A stretch of DNA of 64,000 nucleotides from Minisyncoccota bacterium (GTDB lineage: Bacteria; Patescibacteriota; Minisyncoccia; Phycocordibacterales; DATDWN01): the NCBI GenBank assembly GCA_041658985.1, contig JBAZZC010000006.1:2369-66368 (forward strand), in the 5' to 3' direction. Shown here piece after piece: positions 274 to 63,143 of this stretch (position 1 is the first letter of the stretch; each line of letters starts with the position of its first letter). Made by a program: the position numbers and the translations under genes. The notes beneath the pieces are model-generated. The model was not told where the DNA came from and did no database searches. It saw only the letters and a program-made list of their open reading frames with translations.

Positions 274-2043
274 ATGTATAAAAAATTAATTTTTCTTGTC
301 CTTTTTGCTTTTTTGTCTGCCTACGCAGGCGGACCGTTATCTCTTTTTGCCGCTTCGGCTTCTATTGATTATTTCTATACCAGTACAACCGTCCCCGTCG
401 GCACTCAAATTTTCTTTAGAGTCAACCCCTTAGGCTTTCCTGGTTCTATTGTGTATTCAGTCACTGATTCCCTTTCCGGGTCCAGCGTCTCCAATTCACG
501 TATAGATAGCTATGGGTCATTTGTTTGGACACCAACCTTACAGGACGTCGGCACTCACAATATTATTATCAACTTGTCAGATTCATCCGGAAATACTGCC
601 TCTGTTACTCAACAAATAACAGTGCCTTTTGTACCCACTGTTGTAATCCAAAACCTTTTTCCCAGCACCTCGGTTAACGCCAAACAAACCGTTTTCTTTA
701 ACGCTTTTGCAACAGGATTTACAAACCCAACCTATTATGCCAGTGACTCTGTTTATAATTCAAGCATGACCGCAACAAACATGAACGCTTCTGGTGGTTT
801 CAGTTGGACACCCAGAGAATTTGATGCGGGAAGTCATGTTATTACCGTACTAGTAACAGACAGCGCCGGACACAGAGCCACTGCCACACAAACTATTACT
901 GTCGGAGTAGCCACTACGACCATAACGTTACTTTCTCCAGGAAATACAGTCGCCTCCAAACAAAATGTTACTTTTAAAGTTACCCCCACAGGTTTTACAA
1001 ACCCCACCCATGCAGTATCTGATTCTGTTTCGGGAAGTAGTATTGGTAATGGAAACATAAACGGTCTTGGGATTTTTAGTTGGACCCCCACTATAAATGA
1101 TTTAGGTACCCATCTAATTACAATAAAAACAAGTGATACCTCTGGAAATACCTCAACTATTTCACAACAAATAACCGTGACCAGTCCAAAAATAGAAATT
1201 TTATCTGTAAACCCTGGCACAGCCGTTAATGTTGGAACTATCCTATCTTTCATTGCGACTTCAACTGGATTAACAAACCCAAATTACACAATTACTGATT
1301 CATTGAGTGGAACAAGTGTCTCTAAGAGCAGTAGAGCCACAACTGGTGGCTTCTCTTGGACTCCAAAAGGTAACGACTTGGGGTCGCACACCATAAGAAT
1401 ATTGGCCATGGATAATTATGGTAGTAGTGCAAATGGAGAGGTGTTAGTAACAGTCAAACCGCAAACAAATGCAGTAATTTCTTATCCTGCAGGTAGCGGA
1501 ATTGTAACCCCCCCAACAAATACTAAGACCACAGTCACAAATTATACCTTTAAAAAATATCTTTCTCTTGGGTCATCCGGTGCTGATGTTTCTGCACTAC
1601 AGACCATTCTAAAACAAAAAGGATTTTTGTCTGGAGATATTACTGGATATTATGGAAATCTAACGACAAAAGCTGTTAGAGATTTTCAGTTGTCAAAAGG
1701 TCTAGAACAAGCTGGAGTTATAGGCCCAAGAACAAGAGTGGCGTTAAATAGCTTGAGTAATACTACAACTACTTCAACTCCCCCAACCACATCAGCGACC
1801 CCAGGAGCAGGAACAAACACTGCAAAATACACATTTACTAAACCATTAACGATAGGTTCGGCCGGCACCGAAGTGTTTGAGTTACAAAAAAAATTAACCA
1901 GTCTAGGTCTATATTCTGGGCCAATTACTGGAACATATAACTCATTAACCTGGGAGGCAGTTAAAAAATTCCAATCTCAACATAACCTAGAACAAGTTGG
2001 GAGTATTGGGCCGGGCACAAGAAACGCCCTAAATAATAACTAA
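274..2043 (+). CDS. Secreted cell-surface protein with a signal peptide, four tandem ~110-aa Ig-like repeats and two C-terminal peptidoglycan-binding (PG_binding_1-like) domains
   Basis: 589-aa ORF with a hydrophobic N-terminus. The repeat motif GFTNPTY...SDS.SGSS...GGFSWTP..DLG.H.I occurs four times. The C-terminus has two copies of L.LGS.G..V..LQ..L...G.....ITG.Y...T..AV..FQ... Confidence 0.7.
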   Translation: MYKKLIFLVLFAFLSAYAGGPLSLFAASASIDYFYTSTTVPVGTQIFFRVNPLGFPGSIVYSVTDSLSGSSVSNSRIDSYGSFVWTPTLQDVGTHNIIINLSDSSGNTASVTQQITVPFVPTVVIQNLFPSTSVNAKQTVFFNAFATGFTNPTYYASDSVYNSSMTATNMNASGGFSWTPREFDAGSHVITVLVTDSAGHRATATQTITVGVATTTITLLSPGNTVASKQNVTFKVTPTGFTNPTHAVSDSVSGSSIGNGNINGLGIFSWTPTINDLGTHLITIKTSDTSGNTSTISQQITVTSPKIEILSVNPGTAVNVGTILSFIATSTGLTNPNYTITDSLSGTSVSKSSRATTGGFSWTPKGNDLGSHTIRILAMDNYGSSANGEVLVTVKPQTNAVISYPAGSGIVTPPTNTKTTVTNYTFKKYLSLGSSGADVSALQTILKQKGFLSGDITGYYGNLTTKAVRDFQLSKGLEQAGVIGPRTRVALNSLSNTTTTSTPPTTSATPGAGTNTAKYTFTKPLTIGSAGTEVFELQKKLTSLGLYSGPITGTYNSLTWEAVKKFQSQHNLEQVGSIGPGTRNALNNN

Positions 2044-2607
2044 TTATACTAATTTTTGTTCAGTGTGACTATGTATATCTCCAACTTTATTTTGGTGACT
2101 AAATATTATTCTACGAACTTCTTCTGGATGCCTAACGGTTGTCATATTAAATTCCTGACTATTTTCACTGGCAGTTTGAACTCTAATGTTTCCGAACTTT
2201 AAAAAAGTTGGGATAAAACCCTGAACATCTAATGTAACATCCTGTATTCTATCAAAACGCAGATTTGAAACCTCTCTATGAAAAATGTTTTTTTGGTCAA
2301 TTATAATAATACGTTTTTCCGTTACATACCAAACATCTAAATAGTATTTTGTCCATTCAACAAAAAAGGAAATCCACAGAAAAAGTAACCACAGTGTATA
2401 AAAAAATAAAAAAAGAGCATATTTATTTCCATAAAAATTTATATTAAAAAATTCAGGAATAAATATTTCAACTATCTTAAATAAGATAATCGGCAAAAGA
2501 GCAGCAAATAGCAAAACTGTGGCATAACCCACAAAAACGATCCAGTGTTTACGAACTTCAAAGACAACATGCTCGTCCGACTCTAGATGTAGTGCTTTGT
2601 ATAACAT
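2044..2607 (-). CDS. Membrane protein with a bPH_2/YdbT-like (membrane-flanked PH) domain
   Basis: 187-aa ORF with two TM helices followed by a soluble domain. It abuts the upstream stop with no gap. Confidence 0.5.
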   Translation of the reverse strand: MLYKALHLESDEHVVFEVRKHWIVFVGYATVLLFAALLPIILFKIVEIFIPEFFNINFYGNKYALFLFFYTLWLLFLWISFFVEWTKYYLDVWYVTEKRIIIIDQKNIFHREVSNLRFDRIQDVTLDVQGFIPTFLKFGNIRVQTASENSQEFNMTTVRHPEEVRRIIFSHQNKVGDIHSHTEQKLV

Positions 2608-2609
2608 GA

Positions 2610-2858
2610 TTAGTAATAATTTAAAGCTATAGTGGAAATCACAAACAAAGTTACCGATACTATTACAAATGTAGTCTCAGCAAGAATAACCTTAGCACTA
2701 TACATTCCATATTCAGACCAGTGATAGATAAGAGCCGCAGAGACAATCACATATAAAACAAAAAAGAGTCCTAAAACAATAGGAAGAATTGGTGTGGTAC
2801 TAAAAAAGGATGACATAAAATTTGGAAGTGCTGGAATTATGAATGGTGGTGGTTCCAT
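2610..2858 (-). CDS. Small integral membrane protein (start trimmed to MEPPPF)
   Basis: ORF 2610-2909. The extension beyond Met18 runs into repeat arm G, so the start is trimmed. Three predicted TM segments. Confidence 0.4.
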   Translation of the reverse strand: MEPPPFIIPALPNFMSSFFSTTPILPIVLGLFFVLYVIVSAALIYHWSEYGMYSAKVILAETTFVIVSVTLFVISTIALNYY

Positions 2859-2864
2859 ATAAAT

Positions 2865-3005
2865 ATTTATCCGCACACTAATTTTGCCATTGTTTTCAAT
2901 ATTCTGCAACAGAACCCTGTATAAATTCGACTTGAACTGTTTGCGTCAAAAAAATAGAAAGCCATGTTGAAAACCAGAATGATGGCAAATTTAGTGTTCG
3001 GATAT
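2865..3005. repeat. Paired-arm inverted-repeat element, family 1 copy G
   Basis: Left arm TTTATCCGCACACTAATTTTGCCATTGTTTT pairs with right arm AATGATGGCAAATTTAGTGTTCGGATA across a ~75-nt AT-rich spacer. It lies between the DedA stop and the small membrane ORF start, 7 nt from the ATG. Confidence 0.6.
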
Positions 3006-3021
3006 ACCAAATAAAGAAAAA

Positions 3022-3618
3022 CTATTCACTTTTGATAAGATACTTTTTAGCAAGCTTGCTAGATATTATAAACGAAAGAACAACAATAATAATACTTATT
3101 ACAATAAACCCAATAATATTTAGATACCCGTCTATTTTTATATATGAACTACCAATATAATACCCCAAAAACAACAAAGCAGAAGTTTTTAGAATAGTCA
3201 TTATTAAATTAATCCAAAGATATTGAAGGAAATTAACTTTAGCAATTCCCGCTGTTATCTGTATTACCGTACCCGTACCATGAAAAAATTTTGCCGCAAG
3301 GAGTGTCTTGATTTTGTGCTTTCTAAAGTGATTCTCCAAAAACTCCTCACTATTTTCATCATAGCCAAACCAGGACCCGTGTTTTTTTATCCAGACAGAC
3401 TTTTGCCAATATCTACCAACAACATAATGTAATACATCTCCCGTTAAATCACCCACAGCCAACAAAATATAAACTATATAAATATTCAACAAACCCAAAT
3501 AAATAAAAAAGCCAGAAATAACCGTGACGATTGGGCCTTCAAACACTGCGATTGGAAAAATCAGTAAGTATTTATATTGTTCTAAAAAAAACGAAATATC
3601 CGATGAGGATAAAAACAT
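3022..3618 (-). CDS. DedA/SNARE-associated family membrane protein
   Basis: 198 aa, multi-TM, with the DedA-like motif VTVISGFFIYLG...GDLTGDVLHY. Confidence 0.7.
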   Translation of the reverse strand: MFLSSSDISFFLEQYKYLLIFPIAVFEGPIVTVISGFFIYLGLLNIYIVYILLAVGDLTGDVLHYVVGRYWQKSVWIKKHGSWFGYDENSEEFLENHFRKHKIKTLLAAKFFHGTGTVIQITAGIAKVNFLQYLWINLIMTILKTSALLFLGYYIGSSYIKIDGYLNIIGFIVISIIIVVLSFIISSKLAKKYLIKSE

Positions 3619-6951: not shown

Positions 6952-7099
6952 ATTAATCCGAACACTAACTTTAGCATCGTTGCCTAGTGTTTTCGTATAT
7001 TATTACCCAATTTGATATTTACTATAGAATAATACATAGTTAATACTAAATAACAAGCAACAGTAAAAACACAATGCTAAAGTTAGTGTGCGGATAAAT
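6952..7099. repeat. Paired-arm inverted-repeat element, family 1 copy A (between divergent truB and hisS)
   Basis: Arms TTAATCCGAACACTAACTTTAGCATCGTTG and CAATGCTAAAGTTAGTGTGCGGATAAAT. The right arm ends 1 nt before the hisS ATG. The spacer is AT-rich with outward promoter-like hexamers. Confidence 0.65.
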
Positions 7100-8386
7100 A
7101 TGAGCAATAAATCAAAATTAAGCACAGAGAGTTATAAGGGGGTTAGGGATTTTTATCCTGAGGATTTATTTATTCAAAATTATATTTTTAACACCTGGCG
7201 GAGGGTTGTGGAAAGTTTTGGCTACACAGAATACAGTGCTTCAGTACTGGAACCAGCTGAACTTTACAAAGCTAAAACTGGAGAAGAAATCGTTAACGAA
7301 CAAACTTACACCTTTACTGACCGTGGAAAACGAGAGGTAACTTTGCGTCCCGAAATGACTCCAACTGTTGCCCGAATGGTTGCCCAAAAACAACATGATT
7401 TGGTTTTTCCTCTGCGTTGGTATTCAATACCAAATCTTTTCCGATATGAGAAACCACAAAAGGGGCGCCTGCGAGAACACTGGCAATTAAATGTGGATAT
7501 TTTTGGAGTTGATTCTAATTATGCTGATATTGAAATAATCACTATCGCCCACCGAATAATGAAAGGCTTTGGAGCAAAGGATGATGACTTCGTAATAAAA
7601 ATCAATAATAGAAAAATAATAAATGCTTTGTATAAAAAATTTGATTTAGATGAAGAAAAATCCCACAAAGTCTCAAAAATTATAGACAAAAAAAATAAGA
7701 TTTCTGTTGCCGGCTTTGAAGAAGCCCTGACAGAAATTATGGGTGAAAGAGCCTTAGAGTTTATTACATCCATGGAATCAAACGAAAAACTAATTGAGGC
7801 CCTAGGAAGTAATAACAAATATACAAATGAACTGGCTTCCCTCATTGAACAACTTCAGGACTCTGGAGTAACAAACATTACTTTTGACCCAACACTTATG
7901 CGTGGCTTTGATTATTATACAGATATGGTTTTTGAGGTTTTTGATTTACACCCAGATAACAACAGGTCGGTTTTTGGGGGTGGCAGATACAATGACCTTT
8001 TGGACATCTTTGGGGCACCAAAAGTACCCGCAGTCGGATTTGGAGCTGGAGACGTAACGATAAGAGACTTTATGGAAACACACGGCCTAACACCCAAGTA
8101 TAAAAAAACTATTGACCTTTATATTTGCACTACCGAAACTAAATATGTAAAAGAGGCAAATAAACTGGCCAATAATTTACGACAAAACGGTTTGAATGTA
8201 GCTGTAGATTTTAGTGACAAAAAACTCGGTGACCAGGTCAAGACAGCCCACAAACAAAATATTCCTTATGTTATTTGTGTTGGTGAAGATGAGGTAAAAT
8301 CTGGTCTGTATAAAGTAAAAAATATGGATACTGGTGAGGAAGTAAAGGCAAGGATAGATGAGATAGTGAATGCTATTAAAAAATAG
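7100..8386 (+). CDS. hisS: Histidyl-tRNA synthetase
   Basis: Class II motifs (RPEMTPTVAR, FRYEKPQKGR, GGGRYD) and a C-terminal anticodon-binding domain. Confidence 0.9.
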   Translation: MSNKSKLSTESYKGVRDFYPEDLFIQNYIFNTWRRVVESFGYTEYSASVLEPAELYKAKTGEEIVNEQTYTFTDRGKREVTLRPEMTPTVARMVAQKQHDLVFPLRWYSIPNLFRYEKPQKGRLREHWQLNVDIFGVDSNYADIEIITIAHRIMKGFGAKDDDFVIKINNRKIINALYKKFDLDEEKSHKVSKIIDKKNKISVAGFEEALTEIMGERALEFITSMESNEKLIEALGSNNKYTNELASLIEQLQDSGVTNITFDPTLMRGFDYYTDMVFEVFDLHPDNNRSVFGGGRYNDLLDIFGAPKVPAVGFGAGDVTIRDFMETHGLTPKYKKTIDLYICTTETKYVKEANKLANNLRQNGLNVAVDFSDKKLGDQVKTAHKQNIPYVICVGEDEVKSGLYKVKNMDTGEEVKARIDEIVNAIKK

Positions 8387-8409
8387 TCTCAAATTTTAAA
8401 TAATATTTT

Positions 8410-8576
8410 AGACACGTATAAATCACTGGTGTGATTTTACTATGCTCGTCAATCAAGAAAACAATCTTCCTCAGTACTGGCCCTCTCGCAAACTCCTCGT
8501 TGAGTACAACTTCGTCAAACAGTGCTTCGGGCTGGCGTACTTCGTCGTTGTTTTCTAATTGACTGTGCAATGTCTA
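8410..8576 (-). repeat. Copy 1 of a duplicated ~160-nt GC-moderate structured element (candidate ncRNA or MITE)
   Basis: ~90% identical to 47493-47646 on the opposite strand, with one 19-vs-10-nt indel. Terminal complementarity GTCAATTAGAAAACAA / TTGTTTTCTTGATTGAC. Confidence 0.5.
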
Positions 8577-8628
8577 AAATATCACTTAAAATTTTGCGAA
8601 CGGTTAGGTTCACTGTTATACTGACAAT

Positions 8629-9370: not shown

Positions 9371-9776
9371 ATGATTCAACAAGATTTTAATTTTTATTTA
9401 TCCCTAAGGTTGTGCCTTTAAAATTATTGTTTTTATAAACGAAAAAGAGGCGGCGGGGACTCTGCTGGCAGTCCCCACCCCTCTCGTGTTCCTTGGCCAG
9501 AGTGCCTCGCTCCCTCGAGAGCTACTGGCCGTCAATCCACACATCTGACCGTGTCGTGTCGCTACTGGCCAGTCGAGGTCGCCGTCGGCGCCATCTTGGT
9601 GGTTGTCGCCGCCGCCGTCGTCCTGGTCTTCGCCGTGCGTCGCTTCGTCGCCGTGGTCATTTCCTGCACCTCCTGTGTCCCGGAAAGAGTTGACGTGGAT
9701 GACGCGACTCCGCGATGCCATCCTCTATTAGCATAACAAAACAGTATTTACTGTGTCAATAGTTATCCACAGCACC

Positions 9777-14288: not shown

Positions 14289-14486
14289 CTATTCAGCGAC
14301 ACAAACTGGAACTGGAGGTAAGACAACCGCCTTCCAGACCCCTTCTTGGTGATTGAACTCCATATCCTCAAGAAGTTTCCAGCACTCATCACAGTAGCGA
14401 TACCCCTGAAAAATGACACGAACTTTCTTTCCGTGGCAGAATGGGCAACGCCTCTCGCCATCCTTGATATACGAAGCTTCAATCAT
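14289..14486 (-). CDS. Small C4 zinc-ribbon protein co-transcribed upstream of the helicase-nuclease
   Basis: CPFCHG...YCDEC. RBS GGAGGT lies 4 nt before the ATG at 14486. Palindrome ATGACCATGGGGTCAT sits just upstream. 18 nt separate it from the helicase start. Confidence 0.5.
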   Translation of the reverse strand: MIEASYIKDGERRCPFCHGKKVRVIFQGYRYCDECWKLLEDMEFNHQEGVWKAVVLPPVPVCVAE

Positions 14487-14562
14487 GTGACCTCCAAAAA
14501 ACAAATATGACCCCATGGTCATTTCGCATTTATAGTAACATTTTATATTTTTTTACACAAAC

Positions 14563-14620
14563 AAAAAAGCCTCGTGCCGGTGGGGATGCCCACATTGGGC
14601 ACCCCACCTACACGAGACCG
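14563..14620 (-). terminator. Rho-independent terminator of GC-island gene 1
   Basis: GGTGGGGATGCCCA-CAT-TGGGCACCCCACC stem followed by a U-run on the minus strand. Confidence 0.6.
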
Positions 14621-14622
14621 CG

Positions 14623-15240
14623 TCAGAAGTTCAGCCTTAGACCGGCCGAACCCCCAACTTTCTTCCCTTCCTTGACCGGCGCGACCCAGAGGTCGAACGG
14701 ACCGAACGACCTCTCAATGTACGGCCCGGTTCCGACGAACCGAGTGGAATTGGCCCCGAGCTTCCAGGAGCCGAGACGGACGGTGCCGGTGTACCGATAC
14801 CAGTATCCGCTCCCGCCGTTCTCATGTGAACTCTCAAGAGTCACTCGACCCTTGCTAATCCACAAGTTGCCTGCGAAGCGAAGTGGCTTCCTGTTGGTCT
14901 CCGCACCAACCAAGAAAGCCACCTGGATGGAGTCAACGGGGGCAAACGTCAGACCGACGAGCCCTTCGGCCCATTTCTCGGTTGACCACTGTCCCCCATC
15001 CTCTGTCCACTGGTTCGTGCCCCACCCCCACACGGCCCACCCGAACTTGCCCTTGATGGGGCCTTCCAGATAGACCGTAACCGAGGGGCTCGTATGCCCC
15101 CCAACGTACTCGTTGTACGATTCGACGAATCGAGTTGGCTCCTGCGCCGACGCCGGCACAAGTGAGGCCACCATCATGACGAGCAAGATGATGACCGTGA
15201 CACCGAAAGTCCGCGGACGAGTATCCAGTGTGATGTCCAT
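14623..15240 (-). CDS. GC-rich secreted protein, possibly an outer-membrane beta-barrel (signal peptide, C-terminal ...LRLNF)
   Basis: 205 aa with an SP ending ASAQ. It has alternating hydrophobic beta-strand-like segments and a C-terminal Phe. ~62% GC with its own promoter and terminator. Confidence 0.5.
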   Translation of the reverse strand: MDITLDTRPRTFGVTVIILLVMMVASLVPASAQEPTRFVESYNEYVGGHTSPSVTVYLEGPIKGKFGWAVWGWGTNQWTEDGGQWSTEKWAEGLVGLTFAPVDSIQVAFLVGAETNRKPLRFAGNLWISKGRVTLESSHENGGSGYWYRYTGTVRLGSWKLGANSTRFVGTGPYIERSFGPFDLWVAPVKEGKKVGGSAGLRLNF

Positions 15241-15254
15241 TGAAACCTCTTTGG

Positions 15255-15330
15255 AATCGGCTGGGGCGACATGCCCCTCTGCTCACAACAATAGCACCAA
15301 AATATTAAATTGTCAATATAAAATTTTGAT
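15255..15330 (-). promoter_or_regulatory. Promoter/5'UTR module of island gene 1 (TTGACA-17-TATTGT, then a GGGGC..GCCCC hairpin)
   Basis: 40 nt are nearly identical to 16085-16125 upstream of the paralogue. Confidence 0.5.
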
Positions 15331-15333
15331 ACG

Positions 15334-15384
15334 AAAAAAGCCCCGTGCCTGCGGAACCCGAGATGGGTTCCGCCGCACGAGACC
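15334..15384 (-). terminator. Rho-independent terminator of GC-island gene 2
   Basis: GCGGAACCC-GAGAT-GGGTTCCGC followed by a U-run. The outer flanks are shared with the terminator at 14563-14620. Confidence 0.6.
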
Positions 15385-15389
15385 GCGCA

Positions 15390-16064
15390 CTACTTGGTCG
15401 ACGCCCAGTGGACACCGACGTAGTACATGTACTGCTTCGCGTTCCCGTTCCGAGAGACGCTCCCGGTAACCGAGAAGTTGTTGTTGACCCTCTGGGTGTA
15501 CGACACCCCAGGGATCCGGTTCAGCGGGTCGTCGAGGAAGTTGAGAAGCGTGTAAGTCAAGCCGACAGGCCCGATATTGGCGTTGAAGCTCGCCAAGTAC
15601 CCAATCCACAGCTTCTCGGGGTTAACCCCGGAGCGCCAGTTCCTCGGCTCGACGCCGATGAACAGACACGGCCACTGAAAAGTCCCTACCGAGACCTCCT
15701 GCCCGGCAATCTTGCCGACCGGCAGACTCATATTCAGGTAGGGACCGACCCACGGAGAGCCCTGGAAGTGCCCAGCCGAACCGGCGACGGTTCCTGTGAG
15801 CTTTCCGAGCTTGAACTCGGGCCCCCAGACAACCCACGCCTGCTCCTGCTGAAATGCCACCTCGAGAAGATGGCCCCGGCCGTTCTTGAAGTCGACGATC
15901 CCGGTTATGCCAGAGCTGATCGGATCCTCACCGGCGGACACCGTGGCACCGGACAGCTTGTAGCCGCCGGGGTCCGCAGGCGGAGTCGCCGTCTGTGCCT
16001 GCGCCGCGAACGGCGTGAGACAGAGGACAAACAGGATGGATGCGACGAGTGTCTGTCTCTTCAC
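15390..16064 (-). CDS. Paralogous GC-rich secreted protein (GTG start, signal peptide ...AAQAQ)
   Basis: Start moved to the GTG at 16064, behind the duplicated promoter module. N-terminal signal peptide; overall similar architecture to 14623-15240. Confidence 0.45.
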   Translation of the reverse strand: MKRQTLVASILFVLCLTPFAAQAQTATPPADPGGYKLSGATVSAGEDPISSGITGIVDFKNGRGHLLEVAFQQEQAWVVWGPEFKLGKLTGTVAGSAGHFQGSPWVGPYLNMSLPVGKIAGQEVSVGTFQWPCLFIGVEPRNWRSGVNPEKLWIGYLASFNANIGPVGLTYTLLNFLDDPLNRIPGVSYTQRVNNNFSVTGSVSRNGNAKQYMYYVGVHWASTK

Positions 16065-16084
16065 GTTGGTCCTTTCGGTATCTT

Positions 16085-16140
16085 GGAGGCGACATGCCCC
16101 TCTGCTCACAACAATAGCACCAAACATCCATTTTGTCAAT
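16085..16140 (-). promoter_or_regulatory. Duplicated promoter/5'UTR module of island gene 2
   Basis: TTGACA...TATTGT plus the same GC hairpin as upstream of gene 1. Confidence 0.45.
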
Positions 16141-16202
16141 ATATCTCCTCCCCCCACCTTCACACAATAAAACCTTTAATCTCGTTGAACTAAAATCTTT
16201 TT

Positions 16203-16310
16203 GGAACATCCGCAGGCTTCCAGCATAGTTCTGTCAAGGCATCCCTTCTTGACAGATGGAAGCCGAGGACATGAACAAACCCAAGCGCTGGCTTGGGTTT
16301 GTGTTTTCAA
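16203..16310 (+). ncRNA. Candidate small RNA: nested 5' hairpin plus an intrinsic terminator, with no upstream plus-strand gene
   Basis: GCTTCCA..CTGTCAAG..CTTGACAG..TGGAAGC followed by CAAACCCAAGC-GCTG-GCTTGGGTTTG and TGTTTT. Confidence 0.2.
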
Positions 16311-23230: not shown

Positions 23231-26200
23231 TTAACTTTCTAATCTTTCCCCATTTATATCTTTCGACCCTTTTTTAATCTGAACATCTAAAGCAAGCCCT
23301 CGTAAATTATTTAGAAGAACATTGAAAGATGCTGGCGTGTTGAGCTGAGTAATCGGCAGACCCTTAACAATGGCATCAAAAGCCGCTGACCTACCAATAA
23401 TGTCATCTGATTTGATAGTTAGAATTTCTTGTAGTGTATGTGCTGCCCCGTGACCCAAAAGTGCCCAGACTTCCATTTCTCCAAATCTCTGTCCTCCATT
23501 CTGAGCTTTTCCACCAAGAGGTTGCTGTGTAATAAGAGAGTATGGACCAATAGAACGCATGTGAATCTTGTCTTCCACCATGTGATGCAGTTTAAGAATA
23601 TACATGTAACCAACAGCAACATCTTGCTCAAAAGCTTCACCAGTTCGGCCGTCAAAAAGTTTCATTTTTCCAGTTTCACTGAATCCTGCTTTTTTTAATT
23701 CGTCCTTGATTTCCTCACCAGTTGCTCCAGCAAACGGAGGAACAATTGCTTGGTAACCCAAGGTATGCGCTGCTAATCCTAAGTGAAGCTCTAGGATTTG
23801 TCCCAAGTTCATACGAGACGGCACACCAAGCGGAGTCAAAATAACATCAATAGGTGTACCATCCACCATATATGGCATATCTTCCTCTGGAAGGATTCTT
23901 GAAATAACACCTTTGTTTCCGTGTCGTCCAGCAAGTTTGTCTCCTACTGAGACATTTCGAAGTTGAGCCACCTCAATATGAATTCTTTTTATAATACCAG
24001 AATCTAATTTATCACCATTTTCTCTTGAAAAAATTTGGACCTTTATGATTCGCCCTTTTTTACCACCCTCCATTCTTTTTGATGTATCTTTTACATCATG
24101 AGCCTTCTCCCCAAAGAGTGAGCGCAACAATCTTTCTTCTGGAGTAAGTTGGGTTTCTCCTTTTGGAGTAATTTTACCAACGAGAATATCTCCCGGTCTA
24201 ACTTCTGCTCCGACTTGGACAATACCATCCTCTGCAAGGTTTTTTAATTTTGCCTCACCTACATTAGGAATATCACAAGTAGTAACTTCTGGACCCAATT
24301 TTGTATCCCGAACATTAACCACAAATTCTTCTATGTGAATAGATGTGAATTTACTGTCTTTTACCACCCTTTCAGAGAGAATAATAGCGTCTTCATAGTT
24401 TGAGCCACTCCAAGACATAAAGGCAACTAACATGTTCTGTCCGATTGCTGATTGTCCATCCTTGCTTGCTGATGTGTCTGCAATTATTTCTCCTTTTTTT
24501 ATCTTGTCACCAACATTAACCCTTGGTCTCTGATGGAAAGCTGTAAAGTTATTTGTTCGAGAAAATCTTATAAGTTCGTACTCTTTATATTTGTCCTGAT
24601 TGTTTTTCGTAATGATTTTTATGCCGTCAGAATGAGTAACAACCCCATCTTCAGTTGCTATAACTAGTCTGCCGGTATCTCGTAAGGCATCCGCTTCTAT
24701 ACCTGTAGCAACAAGAGGTACCTCTGAAATAACACAAGGTGTAGCTTGTCTCTGCATATTAGAAGCCATAAGGGCTCGGTTTGCTTCATCATGGTTTAGA
24801 AATGGAATCATTGATGTAGAAATAGAGAAAGCTTGGTTGGTTGAAACATCAATAAAATCGACTTTATCTCTTGAAATAATACCGGGGTTCCCTTCTGTAC
24901 GAATCTCAACATCATCCACTAAAATTTTTCCATTTTCATCTACCGGGGTCGCCGCATGAGCAATGGCATAGCTTTCCTCTTCAGAAGCATTTAGAAATAC
25001 AATTTCATCAGTTACTACTCCCTTTTTAACTTTTGCATATGGGGTCTCTATCATTCCAAAACTATTAATTCTGGCGTAGATGGCCAAACGTAAAACCAGA
25101 CCAATGTTTGGACCCTCTGGCGTATTAATCGGACAAAGTCGTCCATAGTGAGAATGATGCACGTCACGAACCTCATATCCTGCTCTTGTACGATTAAGAC
25201 CTCCGGGACCAAGTGCAGACAACGTTCGCAAATATTCTATTTCAGAAAGAGGATTTGTCTGGTCCATAAAGTGAGAAAGTTGGTTCGTGGTGAAAAATTC
25301 TTTAATACGTGCCTGAAGTGGCTTTGGAGATATAAATTGAACAGGTAAGGTAACGTCGGTATCAATAGTAGACATTCTGTTTTGAATGTTTCTTTTGATT
25401 TGAGCCATGCCTGTACGGATTTTCTGTTGAAAAAGCTCCCCAACAAATCTCACTCTGCGACTACCAAGATGGTCAATGTCGTCTTCCATAGCATCCGGAG
25501 TGTTGTTTAGAAAAGCCACATGAGAAATTATAGTAACTAGATCATCAAGGGAGATGGTCTTTTTCTTGAGTTCCTTGTCGTCCATTTTTTTATTGAATCG
25601 CTTATTAAATCGATATCTTCCGACAGGAGAGAGGTCGTATCTTTCCTCTTCAAAAATTGAGTTAACAAACTCACGAGCATTTTCGGCTGTGGCCAAATCA
25701 CCATCACGTAATCTTTTGTGTATTTCAATGAAAGCATCATCTACACTCTTGTCTCTGTCTTTCAGTAAGGTTTTTTCTATGGTTTGAGTTGCAAACTTGT
25801 CATCAGCAAAAAGCTTTTTAATCCCCGCATCATCTTTGGCCCCTAAAACCCTAAGAAGGGTTGTACAGACAAATTTTCTTTTGCGGTCAATACGCACATA
25901 AACCACCCCATCTAGGTCAGATTCAATTTCTACCCAAGCCCCACGAGAAGGTATAATCTTGGCCCCAAAAAGTTTGCGCCCTTTTATTTCAGAAGCAGTA
26001 AAAAACACTCCATATGAGCGTGCTAACTGAGGAACAATAACTCGTTCAATTCCAGAAATAATAAAGGTACCGTGGGAAGTCATCAAAGGAAAATCAGCCA
26101 TAAAAATCTCCTGCTCCTTTTCTGTGCCAAGAACATGATTCTTTAATTTTACCTTAACCTTGAGGGGTGCTTCGTAGGAAAGTTTGTTATCTTTTGCAAA

Positions 26201-26428
26201 ATACTCATCATGTTTAGCCTGGGCCAATTCAAAACCAGTAAAATCTAGAGTAAACTTCTTTTCCGAAAAATCTTTTATAGAAGAAAATTCTTCAAAGACT
26301 TCTTTTAGTCCCTTTTCTACAAGCCATTTAAAAGAGTCCAGTTGTGGTTCAACAAAGTTCGGCGTCGAAACAAGTGGCTTTTTAAAGCGACTGAAAAACT
26401 TCTGTGGACGAGCAGTTGTTGTATTCAT
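23231..26428 (-). CDS. rpoB: RNA polymerase beta subunit
   Basis: 1065 aa with the conserved rif region, GEMEVWAL and the C-terminal clamp. Confidence 0.95.
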   Translation of the reverse strand: MNTTTARPQKFFSRFKKPLVSTPNFVEPQLDSFKWLVEKGLKEVFEEFSSIKDFSEKKFTLDFTGFELAQAKHDEYFAKDNKLSYEAPLKVKVKLKNHVLGTEKEQEIFMADFPLMTSHGTFIISGIERVIVPQLARSYGVFFTASEIKGRKLFGAKIIPSRGAWVEIESDLDGVVYVRIDRKRKFVCTTLLRVLGAKDDAGIKKLFADDKFATQTIEKTLLKDRDKSVDDAFIEIHKRLRDGDLATAENAREFVNSIFEEERYDLSPVGRYRFNKRFNKKMDDKELKKKTISLDDLVTIISHVAFLNNTPDAMEDDIDHLGSRRVRFVGELFQQKIRTGMAQIKRNIQNRMSTIDTDVTLPVQFISPKPLQARIKEFFTTNQLSHFMDQTNPLSEIEYLRTLSALGPGGLNRTRAGYEVRDVHHSHYGRLCPINTPEGPNIGLVLRLAIYARINSFGMIETPYAKVKKGVVTDEIVFLNASEEESYAIAHAATPVDENGKILVDDVEIRTEGNPGIISRDKVDFIDVSTNQAFSISTSMIPFLNHDEANRALMASNMQRQATPCVISEVPLVATGIEADALRDTGRLVIATEDGVVTHSDGIKIITKNNQDKYKEYELIRFSRTNNFTAFHQRPRVNVGDKIKKGEIIADTSASKDGQSAIGQNMLVAFMSWSGSNYEDAIILSERVVKDSKFTSIHIEEFVVNVRDTKLGPEVTTCDIPNVGEAKLKNLAEDGIVQVGAEVRPGDILVGKITPKGETQLTPEERLLRSLFGEKAHDVKDTSKRMEGGKKGRIIKVQIFSRENGDKLDSGIIKRIHIEVAQLRNVSVGDKLAGRHGNKGVISRILPEEDMPYMVDGTPIDVILTPLGVPSRMNLGQILELHLGLAAHTLGYQAIVPPFAGATGEEIKDELKKAGFSETGKMKLFDGRTGEAFEQDVAVGYMYILKLHHMVEDKIHMRSIGPYSLITQQPLGGKAQNGGQRFGEMEVWALLGHGAAHTLQEILTIKSDDIIGRSAAFDAIVKGLPITQLNTPASFNVLLNNLRGLALDVQIKKGSKDINGERLES

Positions 26429-26461: not shown

Positions 26462-26604
26462 ATAAATCCGAACACCAACTTTGACATCGTTACTTCTGTC
26501 CCAAGTTTTGCTAACCAGACTTATCTATGTGTCCATCAATACTTAATGGGTCATATCATTAAAGTAACAATGGGACAATGTCAAAGTTGGTGTGCGGATA
26601 AAAA
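26462..26604. repeat. Paired-arm inverted-repeat element, family 1 copy B (rpoB upstream/leader region)
   Basis: Arms AATCCGAACACCAACTTTGACATCGTTACTTCTGTCCCA and TGGGACAATGTCAAAGTTGGTGTGCGGATAAAA. The arm-specific variants CCAACTTTGAC co-vary in both arms. Confidence 0.65.
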
Positions 26605-26615
26605 CGAACACAAAC

Positions 26616-26648
26616 ACAAAGAGACCCTTTCCCCAAAGGGCTCTGTTT
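26616..26648 (-). terminator. Intrinsic terminator closing the lexA-DUF167 operon ahead of rpoB (hairpin is near-symmetric)
   Basis: AGAGACCCTTT-CCCC-AAAGGGCTCT with T-runs on both sides. Confidence 0.55.
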
Positions 26649-26811
26649 CTGTTATTAATTTTTTAGCGATTTTGTCGCAAAATAGTGTAAGCGGACCAAT
26701 TAACCTTGTAATCCCTTCACTTTCCACCAAGACTCAATCGTATGAAGTTAAAACTGAGTATACGTCAAGAGCATATTATCTGTCAAGTAAAGTCAACAGA
26801 GTTATCCACAG

Positions 26812-26922
26812 TTTATCCAGGCACCAAGTAGACAAGAAAAACACACCCTTACTAGCCACTTCTGTACATCGATGAACACAGATTAATTAATACTAATGAG
26901 TTATACTTGTCTACTTGGTGCC
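26812..26922. repeat. Family-2 inverted-repeat element, module 1 (arms TTTATCCAGGCACCAAGTAGACAAG)
   Basis: 25-bp perfect inverted arms across a ~60-nt spacer that contains ACTAGCCACTTCTGTACATCGATGAACA. Confidence 0.6.
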
Positions 26923-26949
26923 TGGATGAATTCACAGTGGGTTTGACAC

Positions 26950-27070
26950 CTACATCCAGGCACTAATTGAATGAGTGTAATTCCTTGATATTAATCTATT
27001 TATGTTCATCGATGTACAGAAGTGGCTAGTAGAGATATTTTCTTCTCATTCAATTAGTGCCTGGATAAAT
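26950..27070. repeat. Family-2 inverted-repeat element, module 2 (arms ATCCAGGCACTAATTGAATGAG), an inverted and diverged copy of module 1
   Basis: Its spacer carries the reverse complement of the same 30-nt core. The arms are perfect within this copy but differ from module 1 after ATCCAGGCAC. Confidence 0.6.
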
Positions 27071-27327
27071 TAGTCTGGAATTTCAAAAATCTTCCTCTTG
27101 GACGTTGCCCCAGAAACCAACCTTACAAGAGATGGAGCAATATCAAAATATTTTGCCAATACTTTAATAATGGCTTCGTTGGCTTTTCCTCCTACAGGCA
27201 CCTCTTTTACTGAAACTTTGTATTCTACCATCCCCTGTCCACCTTTATCAAAATCAAGTGTTGGCTGTCCGACACGTTCCACCACTTCAATCTTTGCTTT
27301 TGGTTTAGCTATAACTACAATCCTCAT
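27070..27327 (-). CDS. DUF167/YggU-family small protein
   Basis: 85 aa with a YggU-like fold signature (...EGKANEAIIKVLAKYF...). Overlaps the lexA stop. Confidence 0.55.
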   Translation of the reverse strand: MRIVVIAKPKAKIEVVERVGQPTLDFDKGGQGMVEYKVSVKEVPVGGKANEAIIKVLAKYFDIAPSLVRLVSGATSKRKIFEIPD

Positions 27328-27328
27328 T

Positions 27329-27907
27329 TTAATATTTTCGGATTACTCCGCGTACTATCGCTGCTACCTTCAGGTCATACTGTGGATAAATTGGTGAATA
27401 GTTTTTATTGGCCGGTTTTAGATAAACTAATCCCCCCTTCTTTTTAAAATACTTCATAGTCCAACCCCCGTCAACTTCTGCAATAACAATATCTCCATCC
27501 TTTGGGTCTCCCTTTCTTTCCACCAGAACCAAGTCACCCTCTTTTATACCCTCATCTATCATTGAGTCACCTTTTACTTCTAATAAATAAGTTCCCTCTT
27601 TATTACCCACAAGATATTCATCTAAGCTCAAAGAATCAAATATGTTGGCATCAACAGAGGTTGGAATACCCGCCTCAACCAAACCAAGAAGTGGAATCTC
27701 TCCAAAAATTTTCATGGGGGTCAGTCTCCCGCTTGAGTCCTTATCAACCACCTCATCCTCAACCAACTTATTGATTAATTTGTAAACAGCATTTTTTGAC
27801 CTGAATCCAACAAGAGACATTATTTCCTTGTACCCAGGCATTCTCCGATTTTTTTGATAGAAAGAGATAATTTTATTTTTTTGTGAGATGTATTTTTCTT
27901 CAGACAT
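27329..27907 (-). CDS. lexA: LexA repressor (S24 peptidase)
   Basis: N-terminal wHTH, cleavage site near AG, and the catalytic Ser and Lys in GDSM...KGDPKDGDIVIAEVDGGWTMKYFKK. Confidence 0.85.
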   Translation of the reverse strand: MSEEKYISQKNKIISFYQKNRRMPGYKEIMSLVGFRSKNAVYKLINKLVEDEVVDKDSSGRLTPMKIFGEIPLLGLVEAGIPTSVDANIFDSLSLDEYLVGNKEGTYLLEVKGDSMIDEGIKEGDLVLVERKGDPKDGDIVIAEVDGGWTMKYFKKKGGLVYLKPANKNYSPIYPQYDLKVAAIVRGVIRKY

Positions 27908-27912
27908 ACTAG

Positions 27913-28055
27913 TTTATCCGCACACTAACTCTGGTATCGTTGCCTCGTCTCCAGATTTAGTTGTGGTTATTTTTATTTGCGTTTATAAAAGTAATAAATT
28001 TAATATTAATTATGGCAACACTGGAGACAATACCAGAGTTAGTGTTCGGATTAAT
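27913..28055. repeat. Paired-arm inverted-repeat element, family 1 copy C (between the small ORF and lexA)
   Basis: Arms TTTATCCGCACACTAACTCTGGTATCGTTGCCTCGTCTCCAG and CTGGAGACAATACCAGAGTTAGTGTTCGGATTAAT (~40 bp). The left arm ends 5 nt before the lexA ATG. Confidence 0.65.
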
Positions 28056-28290: not shown

Positions 28291-28306
28291 AGTGAACTAC
28301 GGTTCA
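28291..28306. promoter_or_regulatory. LexA (SOS) box, Cheo-type GTGAAC-N4-GTTCAC
   Basis: Perfect 6+4+6 dyad GTGAACTACGGTTCAC matching the Gram-positive-type GAAC-N4-GTTC consensus. It sits between the divergent lexA operon and the IS transposase. Confidence 0.6.
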
Positions 28307-28339
28307 CCCGTCAAGTAGGTAGATGTGGATAACTCCACG

Positions 28340-29340
28340 CATATCCCTTGACAACATAATTACAGGGTATATACTTAGGGTATGAAAACAAACAAATACA
28401 CAATACAAGACTTAAAAAACCAGTTCCCCACAGACGAGGTTTGTGCGGAATACATCTTTGACTCCCTACATAGCCGTAAATGCTCATGTGGTGGCGAATA
28501 CAAGCAATTAAAGGGTCGTAGACAGTTTCAATGCTCTAAATGTAGGTATCAGGTAGCCCCGACTGTTAACACCATATTTCACAAATCACCCACCCCACTA
28601 ACTCTCTGGTTTCATGCTTTGTTTGTTTTCTCTACTTCAAAGTCTGGTCTTTCTGCAAAGAACCTAGAAAGCCAAATTGGTGTAACCTATAAATGTGCTT
28701 GGAGGATGTTAAACCAGATTAAGAAGGCACTAAAACAAAGTGGCGATAAATTAAAAGGTGTTGTAGAAACTGACGCTGGATATTTTGGTGGTGTAAAAAA
28801 CGCAGGTAGAAACAATGAGAACTTAAGTGAATCTATGAGAGCTAAAGCTGTTGTTTTAATAGCAGTAGAAAGAAATGGAAACATTAAAGCTAAAATAAGC
28901 GAAAACGCCACAGCAGACAGCCTTGAAAAGTTTGTGAGAGATAGTGTAGAAGAAAAGGCAATATTACTATCTGATAACGCAAGGGGTTTTAACAGATTAA
29001 ACAAAAACTATAGGCATTTCTCAGTCAATCACAGTAAAGGCGAATATGTGAGATACAAAACTCATGTAAACACAGTAGAGACATTCATTTCTCACCTAAA
29101 ACGAAGTATCGGGGGGACATTTAAGAGCGTTTCAAAGAAACACCTGCAGTCTTACCTAGACGCTTTTGTCTTTCATTATAACAATCGGCACAACGACAGA
29201 GAGAGGTTTTCTTCTTTGCTCGGTGCTGTATTACAGTCTTAAGGGTAAATAGGAAACTTGACTTTTTCATATAAATAGTATAAACATTATAACTTATACA
29301 CAGGTATTTTGCATCCGTAGGTAATAGTGATATAATTACA
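28340..29340 (+). mobile_element. Approximate extent of the IS1595-family insertion (ends not resolved)
   Basis: A ~20-nt imperfect direct repeat, AGTAGGTAGATGTGGATAA and CGTAGGTAATAGTGATATAA, flanks the transposase. The right flank resembles a family-1 arm. No clean terminal inverted repeat or target-site duplication was found. Confidence 0.3.
28382..29242 (+). CDS. IS1595-family (ISXO2-like) transposase
   Basis: N-terminal zinc ribbon (CSCGG...CSKCRY) plus a DDE domain. TTGACA-16-TATACT promoter ends 6 nt before the ATG, suggesting a leaderless mRNA. Confidence 0.8.
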   Translation: MKTNKYTIQDLKNQFPTDEVCAEYIFDSLHSRKCSCGGEYKQLKGRRQFQCSKCRYQVAPTVNTIFHKSPTPLTLWFHALFVFSTSKSGLSAKNLESQIGVTYKCAWRMLNQIKKALKQSGDKLKGVVETDAGYFGGVKNAGRNNENLSESMRAKAVVLIAVERNGNIKAKISENATADSLEKFVRDSVEEKAILLSDNARGFNRLNKNYRHFSVNHSKGEYVRYKTHVNTVETFISHLKRSIGGTFKSVSKKHLQSYLDAFVFHYNNRHNDRERFSSLLGAVLQS

Positions 29341-29394: not shown

Positions 29395-29484
29395 TGCGGA
29401 GGATACAGGGATTGAACCTGTGTAACGGTATTAAGCGTGTTGTCGGTGTCGTAGACCGATGCATTACCACTCTGCCAATCCTCC
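29395..29484 (-). tRNA. tRNA gene: anticodon loop CUACGAC gives ACG (Arg) tentatively, with an atypically long ~21-nt variable region
   Basis: Reverse complement has GGAGGAT acceptor stem, AGTGGTAA D-loop, TCGGT/ACCGA anticodon stem, ACAGG-TTCAATC-CCTGT T-arm and ATCCTCC 3' acceptor. No encoded CCA. Confidence 0.5.
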
Positions 29485-38964: not shown

Positions 38965-39393
38965 TTATTCTGTTGCTTTCTCTTCAGTCGGAGTGACTGT
39001 TTCTACTGGAGCCTCTACAACAACCTCTGCCTCGGCTGGAGTTTCAACAACTTCTTCTTTGGTCTCTTCTACTGACTCTGTCTTTACTGCCGCCTCTTCT
39101 TTTGCTTCCTTAACGATTGGTTTTTTCAAAGGTAACACATTGATTTTCTTACCATCAATGATTTTTTTCGTCACAAGCATATTATGAACGGTGTGAGAGG
39201 TTTGAGCTCCTTTTGACATCCAATAGGTAACTCTGTCCGCTTTAAAAGTCGAGTCCTCTCCGTGTCTAGAATCAAAATTGCCTAGATTTTCTAAATATTT
39301 ACCACTCTTTGTTGAGTTCTTTGAGTCAGTCAAAACCAACCGAAATGTCGGTTCGTGTTTTCTTCCCACTCTTTGTAATCTAATTTTTAGCAT
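38965..39393 (-). CDS. rpsP: Ribosomal protein S16 with a ~60-aa acidic Glu/Val/Thr-rich C-terminal extension
   Basis: MLKIRLQRVGRKHEPTFRLV... followed by a KEAKEEAAVKTESVEETKEEVV... tail. Confidence 0.85.
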   Translation of the reverse strand: MLKIRLQRVGRKHEPTFRLVLTDSKNSTKSGKYLENLGNFDSRHGEDSTFKADRVTYWMSKGAQTSHTVHNMLVTKKIIDGKKINVLPLKKPIVKEAKEEAAVKTESVEETKEEVVETPAEAEVVVEAPVETVTPTEEKATE

Positions 39394-39712
39394 TATAGAA
39401 CCTAATTCAAAAATAATTGTTAATAAAATAATAAATACTTGATTGTCTAAACACCATAATTTTGGCAAAAAATAGAGTTTCGTCAGTCGCTCGTACAGTT
39501 GTACGCCTCCCTCCTCATCTTCTATTTTTTTCTCAAAATTCTGCTGTTTATACTAATCATTATTTTCTGAATTAGGTTCTGATATACTAACAGAATAAAT
39601 CAAAACGGTCAATTTTAACCAAAAAACGAAAAGGTGCTCGCGACTTGTATCCAACGATCGGACAGCACGAACACCTTTTCCCGACATCAAACTGGTTGTC
39701 ATGAAGCGCCCC

Positions 39713-47326: not shown

Positions 47327-47492
47327 AGCTGGCTGAGTTCGACAGACGATGGCCTGCGACACGATAAGTACCTCATGGGATCCTGTAGACTGACAATGCG
47401 TCACTCTACAGGATCCCAGCCCCCGAATTGGAAAACTCCGTTCGGTGGGTTTTTTCGTTTAAAAATCACAATATTGAGTTATAACTTTTTCA

Positions 47493-47646
47493 AGACATTG
47501 CACAGTCAATTAGAAAACAACGACGAAGTACGCCAGCCCGAAGCACTGTTTGAGCGTAGCGAGTTTGCGAAAGGGCCAGTACTGAGGAAGATTGTTTTCT
47601 TGATTGACGAGCATAGTAAAATCGCACCAGCGATTTATACGTGTCT
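47493..47646 (+). repeat. Copy 2 of the duplicated ~160-nt structured element
   Basis: See 8410-8576. Immediately precedes the rnc stop. Confidence 0.5.
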
Positions 47647-47671
47647 TGAAAAAGTTAGTAACGAAATAATT

Positions 47672-48367
47672 TTATTGCCAACCACGAGTTACCAGAGCTG
47701 AGCGGGCTGCAGCCTGTTCCGCCTCCTGTTTGGAAACACCATCACCTGTGGCTACTAAATCTTTGCCAACATATACACCAACCGTGAATCTTTTTTCGTG
47801 GTCAGGTCCGGCTTCTTTTATTGTTTTATATGCAGGAGTAATACCATCAAACTCCTGAGCTTTTTCTTGAAACAAGCTTTTAGCGTCAACGTGACTCCCT
47901 GTTGAAATTATATTTTCTATCTTTGGTGTAAAATTTTTCTCAATGAAGTCTTTTGCGGAATCATATCCTTGGTCAATGTAAATCGCACCAATAAGAGCTT
48001 CTAAAGCATTGGCTAGAATATATTGTCTGGCGCGCCCAACATCTTTGCTCTCACCTTTTGAGAGCAGTAAGTAATCACCCATTCCAAGAACCGTAGCAAT
48101 CTGGGAACAAGTATCTGCATTTACTAAGGCCGACCTGTAAGCGGTTAGTTCCCCCTCGGCCCTGTCTTCATATTTTTTAAATAAATAGTCGGTGATAACC
48201 AATTCCAAAACAGCATCGCCAAGAAATTCCAATCTTTCATTGTGTGCCAGACCAGATTGTTTGTTTTCATTTATATATGAACGATGAACAAAAGCCTGCG
48301 TCAAAAGAGCCTCATCTTTAAATGACAGCCCCGCCTCTTTTTGAAATTTTGCAAAATCTGTTGTCAT
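47672..48367 (-). CDS. rnc: Ribonuclease III
   Basis: Signature ERLEFLGDAVLELVITDYLF and a C-terminal dsRBD. Confidence 0.9.
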   Translation of the reverse strand: MTTDFAKFQKEAGLSFKDEALLTQAFVHRSYINENKQSGLAHNERLEFLGDAVLELVITDYLFKKYEDRAEGELTAYRSALVNADTCSQIATVLGMGDYLLLSKGESKDVGRARQYILANALEALIGAIYIDQGYDSAKDFIEKNFTPKIENIISTGSHVDAKSLFQEKAQEFDGITPAYKTIKEAGPDHEKRFTVGVYVGKDLVATGDGVSKQEAEQAAARSALVTRGWQ

Positions 48368-54641: not shown

Positions 54642-55028
54642 TTACGCCATGGCTGAAATGGAAGAGTTGTATGGTTGTGCTAATTTAAATGTTTTGAATT
54701 TATTCCTTATTTTTATCTCCTCAAGGTAGCTTAGAAATTGTTTTGGCAGTGGTGACGGCCCGACCCAAATACTCTTTTGTATCATGACATATCCAAATTT
54801 AATTAAATGTCGCCTAAACCAATCTCTTTCTTTTTTTAGCTCGTGTGGAATATCATACATGACGATAAGATTTTTTGGTAAACTTTTATTGAAAGGAGAC
54901 TGGAAAGAAATATGATATGGGTTTCTTTTTTTTATTACTGATTTGTTGTTTTGTTTTTTAGTAGATACTGGTAAACCAAACATATTTACTTTCACACCTT
55001 TATAATTAAAAATTTTTTGCTTACCCAT
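54642..55028 (-). CDS. Solo Cas2/VapD-superfamily protein with a ~45-aa Lys-rich N-terminal extension
   Basis: LIVMYDIPHELKKERDWFRRHLIKFGYVMIQKSIWVG parallels the Cas2 pattern (ILMFDMP..ERK.YRKFRKFL..GF.M.Q.SVY). No cas1 or CRISPR array nearby. Confidence 0.45.
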   Translation of the reverse strand: MGKQKIFNYKGVKVNMFGLPVSTKKQNNKSVIKKRNPYHISFQSPFNKSLPKNLIVMYDIPHELKKERDWFRRHLIKFGYVMIQKSIWVGPSPLPKQFLSYLEEIKIRNKFKTFKLAQPYNSSISAMA

Positions 55029-60424: not shown

Positions 60425-60570
60425 TTTACCCGCTACACTAACTTTACCATTGTTTTTGTATTCTAATTCAAAATGTTGTTGAATAGTGTTTTTTTCATGA
60501 GACTACTGAAAATAATAGTAGTATTCTGTTAGAAAAACAGAATGATGGTAAAGTTAGTGTGCGGGTTTAC
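60425..60570. repeat. Paired-arm inverted-repeat element, family 1 copy D (between divergent gyrB and pheS)
   Basis: Arms TTTACCCGCTACACTAACTTTACCATTG and AATGATGGTAAAGTTAGTGTGCGGGTTTAC. The arm-specific variants CCCGC and TTTACCAT co-vary. Confidence 0.6.
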
Positions 60571-63142: not shown

Positions 63143-63143
63143 C

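Follow-up and report, generated by a model that had tools for sequence, protein, structure and literature searches.

Among bacterial MITEs, the Correia/NEMIS elements of Neisseria are an example close to the repeats described here. Like these repeats, bacterial MITEs and Correia elements measure ~100-150 bp, lack coding capacity and consist of terminal inverted repeats with a core; they form a long stem-loop when transcribed, lie between genes and are often co-transcribed with their neighbours, and they are present in some relatives and absent from others; their flanks have short duplications, of which the present repeats show a signal at superfamily level. The repeats described here differ from Correia in that their ends and core are unrelated in sequence, their target is TNNAT-like (2-5 bp) and not TA, their 12-bp subterminal stem varies between copies and is always compensated, and no parent insertion sequence is known for them.

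Two further systems are instructive. The bcr1 repeats of the Bacillus cereus group (PMC3184786, PMC6199540, PMC6542083) are likewise small, interspersed and mobile-like, at ~155 bp, and share with the present elements TTTAT at the flanks, compensatory pair changes and the lack of a known transposase; for Bacillus bcr repeats, a TTTAT duplication at insertion has been reported (PMC6199540). The comparison is one of behaviour only; bcr1 forms a two-stem cruciform-like RNA and is found in the B. cereus group alone, whereas the present elements, which belong to CPR bacteria, fold into a single long hairpin. REPINs (PMC3116915) resemble the present elements in their two conserved inverted ends, less conserved spacer, hairpin and common compensatory changes, as well as in their higher-order and clustered arrangements, and differ from them in that the arms here are not REP palindromes and the flanks carry a duplication signal. 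Compensatory changes are on record for both bcr1 and REPINs (PMC3184786, PMC3116915). Our literature search on MITEs in CPR bacteria or Parcubacteria returned nothing relevant.

The window, by which we mean the whole 64-kb (64,000-nt) stretch of DNA that was analysed, belongs to a member of Candidatus Zambryskibacteria (Paceibacterota), a CPR bacterium; the homologues of its LexA carry the names Candidatus Zambryskibacteria, Paceibacterota or Parcubacteria. It forms part of a metagenomic contig of 236 kb (ENA ERZ27249449, k141_991391). On its minus strand, a 66-aa ORF, a lexA-like gene, DUF167, a 641-nt spacer, rpoB and rpoC follow one another, and the DUF167-rpoB spacer holds three hairpin units, namely module 2 (27069-26951), module 1 (26930-26812) and a family-1 element (26602-26463). 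The genes were as the first-pass annotation had described them, all on the minus strand, although the lexA-DUF167 terminator that it had placed beside the block was not borne out, no intrinsic terminator being predicted 3' of DUF167. In the order in which the minus strand reads them, the features are:

27329-27907, minus strand: LexA-like S24 peptidase gene.
27070-27327, minus strand: DUF167 gene.
26951-27069, minus strand: module 2, a family-2 hairpin element of 119 nt, inverted relative to module 1; missing in relatives.
27045-27066: right arm of module 2, CTCATTCAATTAGTGCCTGGAT.
27003-27031, minus strand: conserved core inside module 2 (reverse complement: 26850-26878).
26954-26975: left arm of module 2, ATCCAGGCACTAATTGAATGAG, pairing perfectly over 22 bp with 27045-27066.
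26931-26950, minus strand: inter-module spacer, ancestral and not part of an element, reading GTGTCAAACCCACTGTGAAT and homologous to GTGTCAAAC..ACTGTGAAT in relatives.
26812-26930, plus strand: module 1, a family-2 hairpin element of 119 nt, absent at orthologous spacers; its core reads ACTAGCCAC..GATGAACA on the plus strand.
26906-26927: right arm of module 1, CTTGTCTACTTGGTGCCTGGAT.
26850-26878, plus strand: interior core of module 1, TACTAGCCACTTCTGTACATCGATGAACA, kept also in the copies L018 and L020.
26815-26836: left arm of module 1, ATCCAGGCACCAAGTAGACAAG, pairing perfectly with 26906-26927.
26802-26810, plus strand: DnaA-box-like motif TTATCCACA, which the gene strand reads as TGTGGATAAC; it lies outside the element, a few nt 5' of the rpoB promoter, and is invariant in 8 lineages.
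26757-26786, minus strand: rpoB promoter-like site TTGACA-18-TATACT, conserved and downstream of both modules.
26463-26602, minus strand: family-1 element, copy B, in the rpoB 5' leader; missing in relatives.
23231-26428, minus strand: rpoB.

The family-2 elements follow a single plan, in which conserved terminal inverted repeats, (TTT)ATCCAGGCAC...GTGCCTGGAT, are followed inward by a 12-bp subterminal stem that is copy-specific in sequence and always complementary, and then by a conserved interior core; the outer 10-13 nt are conserved across all family-2 copies. The 25-bp perfect arms originally claimed for module 1 were a slight overstatement, since the perfect pairing is 22 bp and reaches 25 bp (26812-26930) if one T.G pair is counted, and its right boundary had been drawn at 26922, 5-8 nt short of where the unit ends (26930). 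For module 2, which abuts the DUF167 stop codon (27070-27072), the claimed 22-bp arms were found as described (26954-26975 with 27045-27066). The core common to both modules is indeed inverted between them, at a length of 29 nt rather than the 30 given before (only 28 letters had been listed), and the inverted match is perfect (26850-26878 vs 27003-27031). Overall, module 1 agrees with the reverse complement of module 2 at 91/119 positions (76.5%). That arms are identical within a copy and different between copies had also been noted, and this is borne out by the 6/12 subterminal positions at which the two modules differ, all of them compensated within the module. The units (113-119 nt) offer only ORFs of 3-6 codons, none conserved across four copies.

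The block of paired-arm modules is real, because the folds of its units are far better than those of their shuffles. Folded as RNA, the units have energies of -40 to -54 kcal/mol and z-scores of -6.1 to -9.6; folded as DNA, the two modules have z-scores of -6.9 and -8.5; and 0/200 shuffles were as good as the real units. The hairpins of the modules come to -45 to -54 kcal/mol each, and the composite of both to -130 kcal/mol. Neither gathering nor permissive Rfam thresholds gave a family match for the modules, the permissive matches being to miRNA-precursor models that are meaningless here and reflect any long hairpin. Across the four full family-2 copies, 7/25 stem pairs have changed on both sides and 98% of the cells pair, a level of pairing reached by 0/500 shuffles. 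As the two modules are 24% different and yet the arms of each are flawless, the hairpin is being kept intact, whether because no other hairpins propagate or because the copies descend recently from masters that had diverged. No consensus structure was predicted for the interior of the elements. The notion of the variable stem as a guide complementary to the flanks was set aside when inspection by eye revealed no match.

How the modules came to be where they are was addressed through orthologous loci, in relatives with LexA proteins 91-94% identical and lexA genes 77-80% identical in DNA. In at least seven Zambryskibacteria/Paceibacterota lineages the gene order lexA-DUF167-rpoB and the rpoB promoter are kept without either module, and these lineages are also without the neighbouring family-1 copy; by locus, the modules are missing from L037-L040, L043, L048, L049 and L051. 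The DUF167-rpoB spacer measures 641 nt in the window; most relatives have one of 351-407 nt, and a single lineage, with a different hairpin in the spacer, has one of 505 nt. In the spacer alignment, module 1, module 2 and family-1 copy B are each absent from relatives as clean blocks, and the rpoB promoter and leader align throughout. The inter-module 20 nt stand in the ancestral orientation, as judged from a single assembly against the relatives. Since ancestral sequence lies between the modules and the orthologous loci are without both, the two are separate, independent insertions, and the same 20 nt argue against a local tandem inverted duplication, to which the first-pass annotation would have reduced the block had there been no additional copies and no orientation variants.

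One relative may preserve a trace of a similar arrangement. L055, which is without the GTGTCAAAC segment, has a degenerate 32-nt palindrome of element ends, TTTGTCTAGGCACCAATTGGTGCATGGATAAAC, between the DUF167 stop and TGTGGATAAC, and in the simplest reading this would be a composite palindrome like that of the window after collapse. The collapse is something we infer, the relatives being about equally distant from the window, and so are the timing of the insertions and the true orthology of the L055 relic, as the sampled relatives are only 77-80% identical in lexA DNA. Upstream of rpoB, L048 and L051 have another hairpin family, of which L049 has a collapsed relic. The lexA-DUF167 operon itself appears from these comparisons to be a hot spot for small insertions: between lexA and DUF167, L043 has an insertion with a 245-aa ORF and a gene for a DNA methylase (1213-3108), and other relatives have DUF1905 or DUF5680 genes there.

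It had been suggested that the genome be searched for other ATCCAGGCAC-ended elements, and such copies were found in other genomes at unrelated loci. The exact ends were scanned for in 185,579 species genomes and, separately, in metagenomes. The genome scan for paired ends gave 7 matches, one of them real (L003, in a Candidatus Doudnabacteria MAG); the other six, with no arm extension and in high-GC hosts, were due to chance. The metagenome scan gave 26 matches, six of which are genuine relatives, the remainder being chance matches or large palindromic contigs. The viral scans held no family-2 copies, and two single-end matches to family 1 in them were judged to be chance. The copies most like the modules, L018:1740-1853, which adjoins tsaE, and L020:2371-2485, which adjoins a DUF975 gene and NAD kinase, have the ATCCAGGCAC ends, are 114-115 nt long, and have compensated stems different from those of the modules, with which they have in common the core TAC[T/A]AG[C/T]CA...TGT[A/T]CATCG...AACA. 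A subfamily (L003, L010, L021 and L032) has shorter arms, 15-nt ends (ATCCAGGCACCTTCC) and unrelated interiors. Relative to neighbouring transcription, the orientation of the elements is mixed, sense and antisense.

The resemblance between the ends of families 1 and 2, also noted in the first reading of this DNA, was confirmed by the end architecture TTTATCC-NNN-CAC-YAA, which is common to both, and the two families belong to one superfamily of ATCC...GGAT-ended hairpins. Family 1 has six copies in the window, copy B and the following five:

2866-3006, plus strand: family-1 element.
6953-7098, minus strand: family-1 element between the divergent truB and hisS.
27913-28054, plus strand: family-1 element filling the gap from the stop of the 66-aa ORF to the lexA ATG.
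60429-60566: degenerate family-1 element with ACCCGC.. ends.
62999-63141, minus strand: family-1 element filling the gap between two plus-strand genes.

As in family 2, the elements are of a similar size class, intergenic, absent from relatives and compensated in their stems copy by copy: five different triplets occur, and every one has its counterpart on the opposite arm. They differ from family 2 in their ends (GCACAC vs AGGCAC), in unit length (134-140 nt vs 113 nt), in two conserved stem mismatches, and in interiors that are unrelated between copies, where family 2 has a conserved core. The gap filled by the element upstream of lexA (27913-28054) is filled in the same way in L043-L046, and there is no element in L037, L040, L047 or L048. 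Family-1 elements (27908-28054, 63002-63143, 7086-7102) were seen to fill intergenic gaps almost exactly, one of them spanning from the stop codon to 3-8 nt short of the next ATG, and the family-1 end GCGGATAAA puts a GGA 7-11 nt 5' of the starts of lexA, hisS and the ORF at 63144. The copy at L043:476-612 (also in L044-L046) is 93% identical to the window copy in its arms and 62% in its interior, and the further family-1 end in its loop (GTGTTCGGATAAAA) points to nesting or rearrangement.

The flanks of the superfamily have the form T-NN-[ATCC...GGAT]-NN-A(T), and the dinucleotides adjoining ATCC and GGAT are equal in 8/15 elements vs 1.3 expected (P = 1e-5). A clean pair of filled and empty sites was provided by a sister hairpin, ATCCCGTTAGAAGT...ACTTCTAACGGGAT, inserted in the rpoB start region of L040 (11282-11388) and lacking from L048 (1690-1715). 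TGAAT is duplicated around this element, the empty site TATATGAATATT having become TATATGAAT-CC...GGA-TGAATATT when filled, and L040 rpoB keeps its start codon because the terminal AT of the element and the duplicated target rebuild an in-frame ATG. A further hairpin family, with ACCA...TGGT ends and 137-143 nt in length, was seen between prfA and L31 on the same contig, ~4.5 kb beyond the window (L058:15360-15496), and in a relative between rpoC and dnaG (L040:18363-18505).

We consider it likely that the block represents two independent insertions, in opposite orientations and ~20 bp apart, of a ~115-nt non-autonomous MITE-like element between the DUF167 stop and the rpoB promoter. The features of the elements fit the published definition of bacterial MITEs (PMC3184786): they are small and have no transposase gene, their terminal inverted repeats (with 22-bp perfect arms) surround a core, their mobility is seen in dispersed copies and in absence from orthologous sites, and they form a long stable stem-loop. 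Family 2 is thus a new MITE-like family. An as yet unnamed transposase acting in trans would recognise the ~13-bp ends and duplicate a short TNNAT-type target, and the long hairpin would matter for propagation, as single-stranded DNA or as RNA, which would explain why the stems co-vary and stay perfect although the copies differ by 24%. Once in place, the modules would be carried along in the 3' UTR of the lexA-DUF167 mRNA as passengers, where their hairpins may block exonucleases or read-through, or may be substrates of RNase III, for which the window has a gene (47672-48367).

Several points count against the MITE reading. No cognate transposase with matching ends was found in the window and 8 kb more of the contig (72 kb) or in the fetched loci; there is no third family-2 copy in the 72 kb read of this genome; the modules' own flanks, TTTAT/TGAAT and TTTAT/TGTAG, hold no intact duplication, although the module 1 site is of a length that would fit a 5-bp duplication, now diverged; and co-varying subterminal stems are atypical of classical DDE-type MITEs. 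The sole transposase gene of the window, of the IS1595 family (ISXO2-like; 28382-29242), lies beside the lexA operon promoter and appears to be a lineage-specific insertion, as homology with relatives stops at ~28334; it was rejected as the parent element, there being no ATCC-type or matching inverted ends around it.

A second reading, which we hold to be unlikely, is that the units are REPIN-like doublets that move in single-stranded form, the enzyme being an HUH/Y1 (RAYT-type) transposase with a single gene copy elsewhere in the genome, and not a DDE transposase. The units are inverted doublet hairpins with compensatory changes, their conserved ends and variable compensated stems are exactly as described for REPINs (PMC3116915), their arms are perfect despite the 24% divergence between copies, and no cognate IS was found. 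Single arms, however, fold at 0 kcal/mol and so do not qualify as REP palindromes, a conserved GTAG/CGTC tag is missing, and the superfamily flanks show a target duplication, which Y1 transposition does not make. Neither a RAYT gene nor a Y1_Tnp domain was present in 72 kb of this genome, the latter having been looked for in the window ORFs and the called genes of L058.

In a more adventurous reading, which we regard as a long shot, the ATCC...GGAT hairpins would be a CPR-specific class of mobile DNA, spread via a folded single-strand intermediate by a kind of enzyme not yet linked to MITEs, with ends that mimic the TTATCCACA box to borrow a host factor (e.g., DnaA) for targeting or for the regulation of neighbouring genes. 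A folded single-strand intermediate would explain the co-varying, perfect stems.

Very stable folds and a co-varying stem might also be expected of a functional structured RNA kept for the benefit of the host, be it a cis-regulatory leader, a terminator-insulator for lexA-DUF167/rpoB or a small RNA gene, and module 2 does begin right after the DUF167 stop. G.U mismatches also outnumber A.C mismatches, 5 vs 1, when the copies are read in the sense that module 1 has on the plus strand, but these are too few to name a functional strand. This reading is nonetheless very unlikely: the modules are missing at every orthologous locus examined, the two copies are opposed and those elsewhere are sense or antisense to their neighbours, and there is neither a predicted consensus interior structure nor an Rfam match. 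The nested structured rpoB leader that had been proposed for the block fails in particular, because the conserved promoter of rpoB (26786-26757, minus strand) is downstream of the modules, which relatives lack. The rpoB 5' leader proper, of ~150 nt (26612-26757, minus strand), is conserved (ACGATTGAGTCTTG, TTTTGCGACAAAATCGCTAAAAAA), is common to eight lineages with weak covariation, and has at its end a terminator-like hairpin (26624-26641) and then a T-run; it may be an attenuator.

That a TTATCC-recognising protein such as DnaA has an array of binding sites in the block, with the element ends as extra boxes that titrate or recruit it, is very unlikely. The family-1 ends (TTATCCGCA) match the box at 8/9 positions and the family-2 ends (TTATCCAGG) at 7/9, box matches with at most one mismatch are enriched in the window (34 vs 19 expected), and the exact box is conserved beside two promoters. 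The family-2 ends nevertheless miss two consensus positions, the resemblance is confined to TTATCC, and a duplex binding site does not explain the stem covariation. The exact DnaA box that had been reported at the edge of module 1 exists (26802-26810), and its supposed link to the element does not, as the TTATCCACA box is conserved in all relatives without elements and is therefore a resident promoter-upstream sequence, independent of the modules. A replication origin was also rejected, the locus having no GC-skew switch and no origin feature.

DnaA-box-like 10-mer sites were seen in the window at 26802-26811, 28324-28333 and 9763-9771, a second box, GTTATCCACA, is conserved upstream of the promoter of the 66-aa-ORF/lexA operon, and the box is kept in every relative (L037:11176, L040:11034, L043:3409, L049:11639, L051:4833, L055:1902, L047:3408) although its surroundings diverge; it looks like a conserved regulator-binding site, possibly for DnaA. 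In the same operon, GAACTACGGTTC (28294-28305) has the form GAAC-N4-GTTC, resembles the Gram-positive LexA operator and sits between the -35 and -10 of the predicted promoter-like site (28314-28286, minus strand), which suggests LexA autoregulation.

An invertible DNA switch, also raised in the first-pass annotation, would have the DNA between the modules flipped by recombination of one module with the other. The 117-nt inverted copies (77% complementarity, with a 29-nt perfect inverted core) speak for it, yet it has next to no chance of being correct, as the window encodes no invertase, tyrosine recombinase or other recombinase domain, the intervening DNA is only 20 nt, in ancestral orientation in the single assembly and with no promoter-like site, and relatives lack the block altogether, one of them showing collapse and not inversion.

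Hairpin mini-transposons of at least two families make up ~1.7% of the 64-kb window, though CPR genomes are very small and tightly packed, and related lineages carry further hairpin families at the same hot spot upstream of rpoB. In core genes (lexA, rpoB) they insert beside, and even into, start and stop codons, so that the elements may affect expression, and they should also be useful as strain-level markers. For long palindromes in CPR genomes generally, orthologous loci are worth checking before a regulatory RNA, an origin or a switch is called, and the combination of co-varying stems and a missing transposase makes the movement of such elements in CPR bacteria a tractable question.

Several minor observations were made elsewhere in the window. 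A small Cas2-like/PaaX_M-domain protein is encoded at 54642-55028, and no CRISPR array or other cas genes were seen beside it in the window. About 2 kb at 14300-16300 has a G+C content of 46% vs ~38% elsewhere, ORFs that overlap on both strands, and no Pfam or Rfam match; it may be of foreign origin or encode a large RNA not yet described. The tRNA-Arg(ACG) gene at 29396-29484 is, at 89 nt, longer than standard, with the 71-position Rfam model spanning 88 nt, and may contain an insertion or intron. Three longer inverted-repeat pairs with unrelated ends (8391-8594, 39387-39590 and 47482-47657; arms of 16-27 nt, separated by 144-156 nt) are possible further hairpin repeats.
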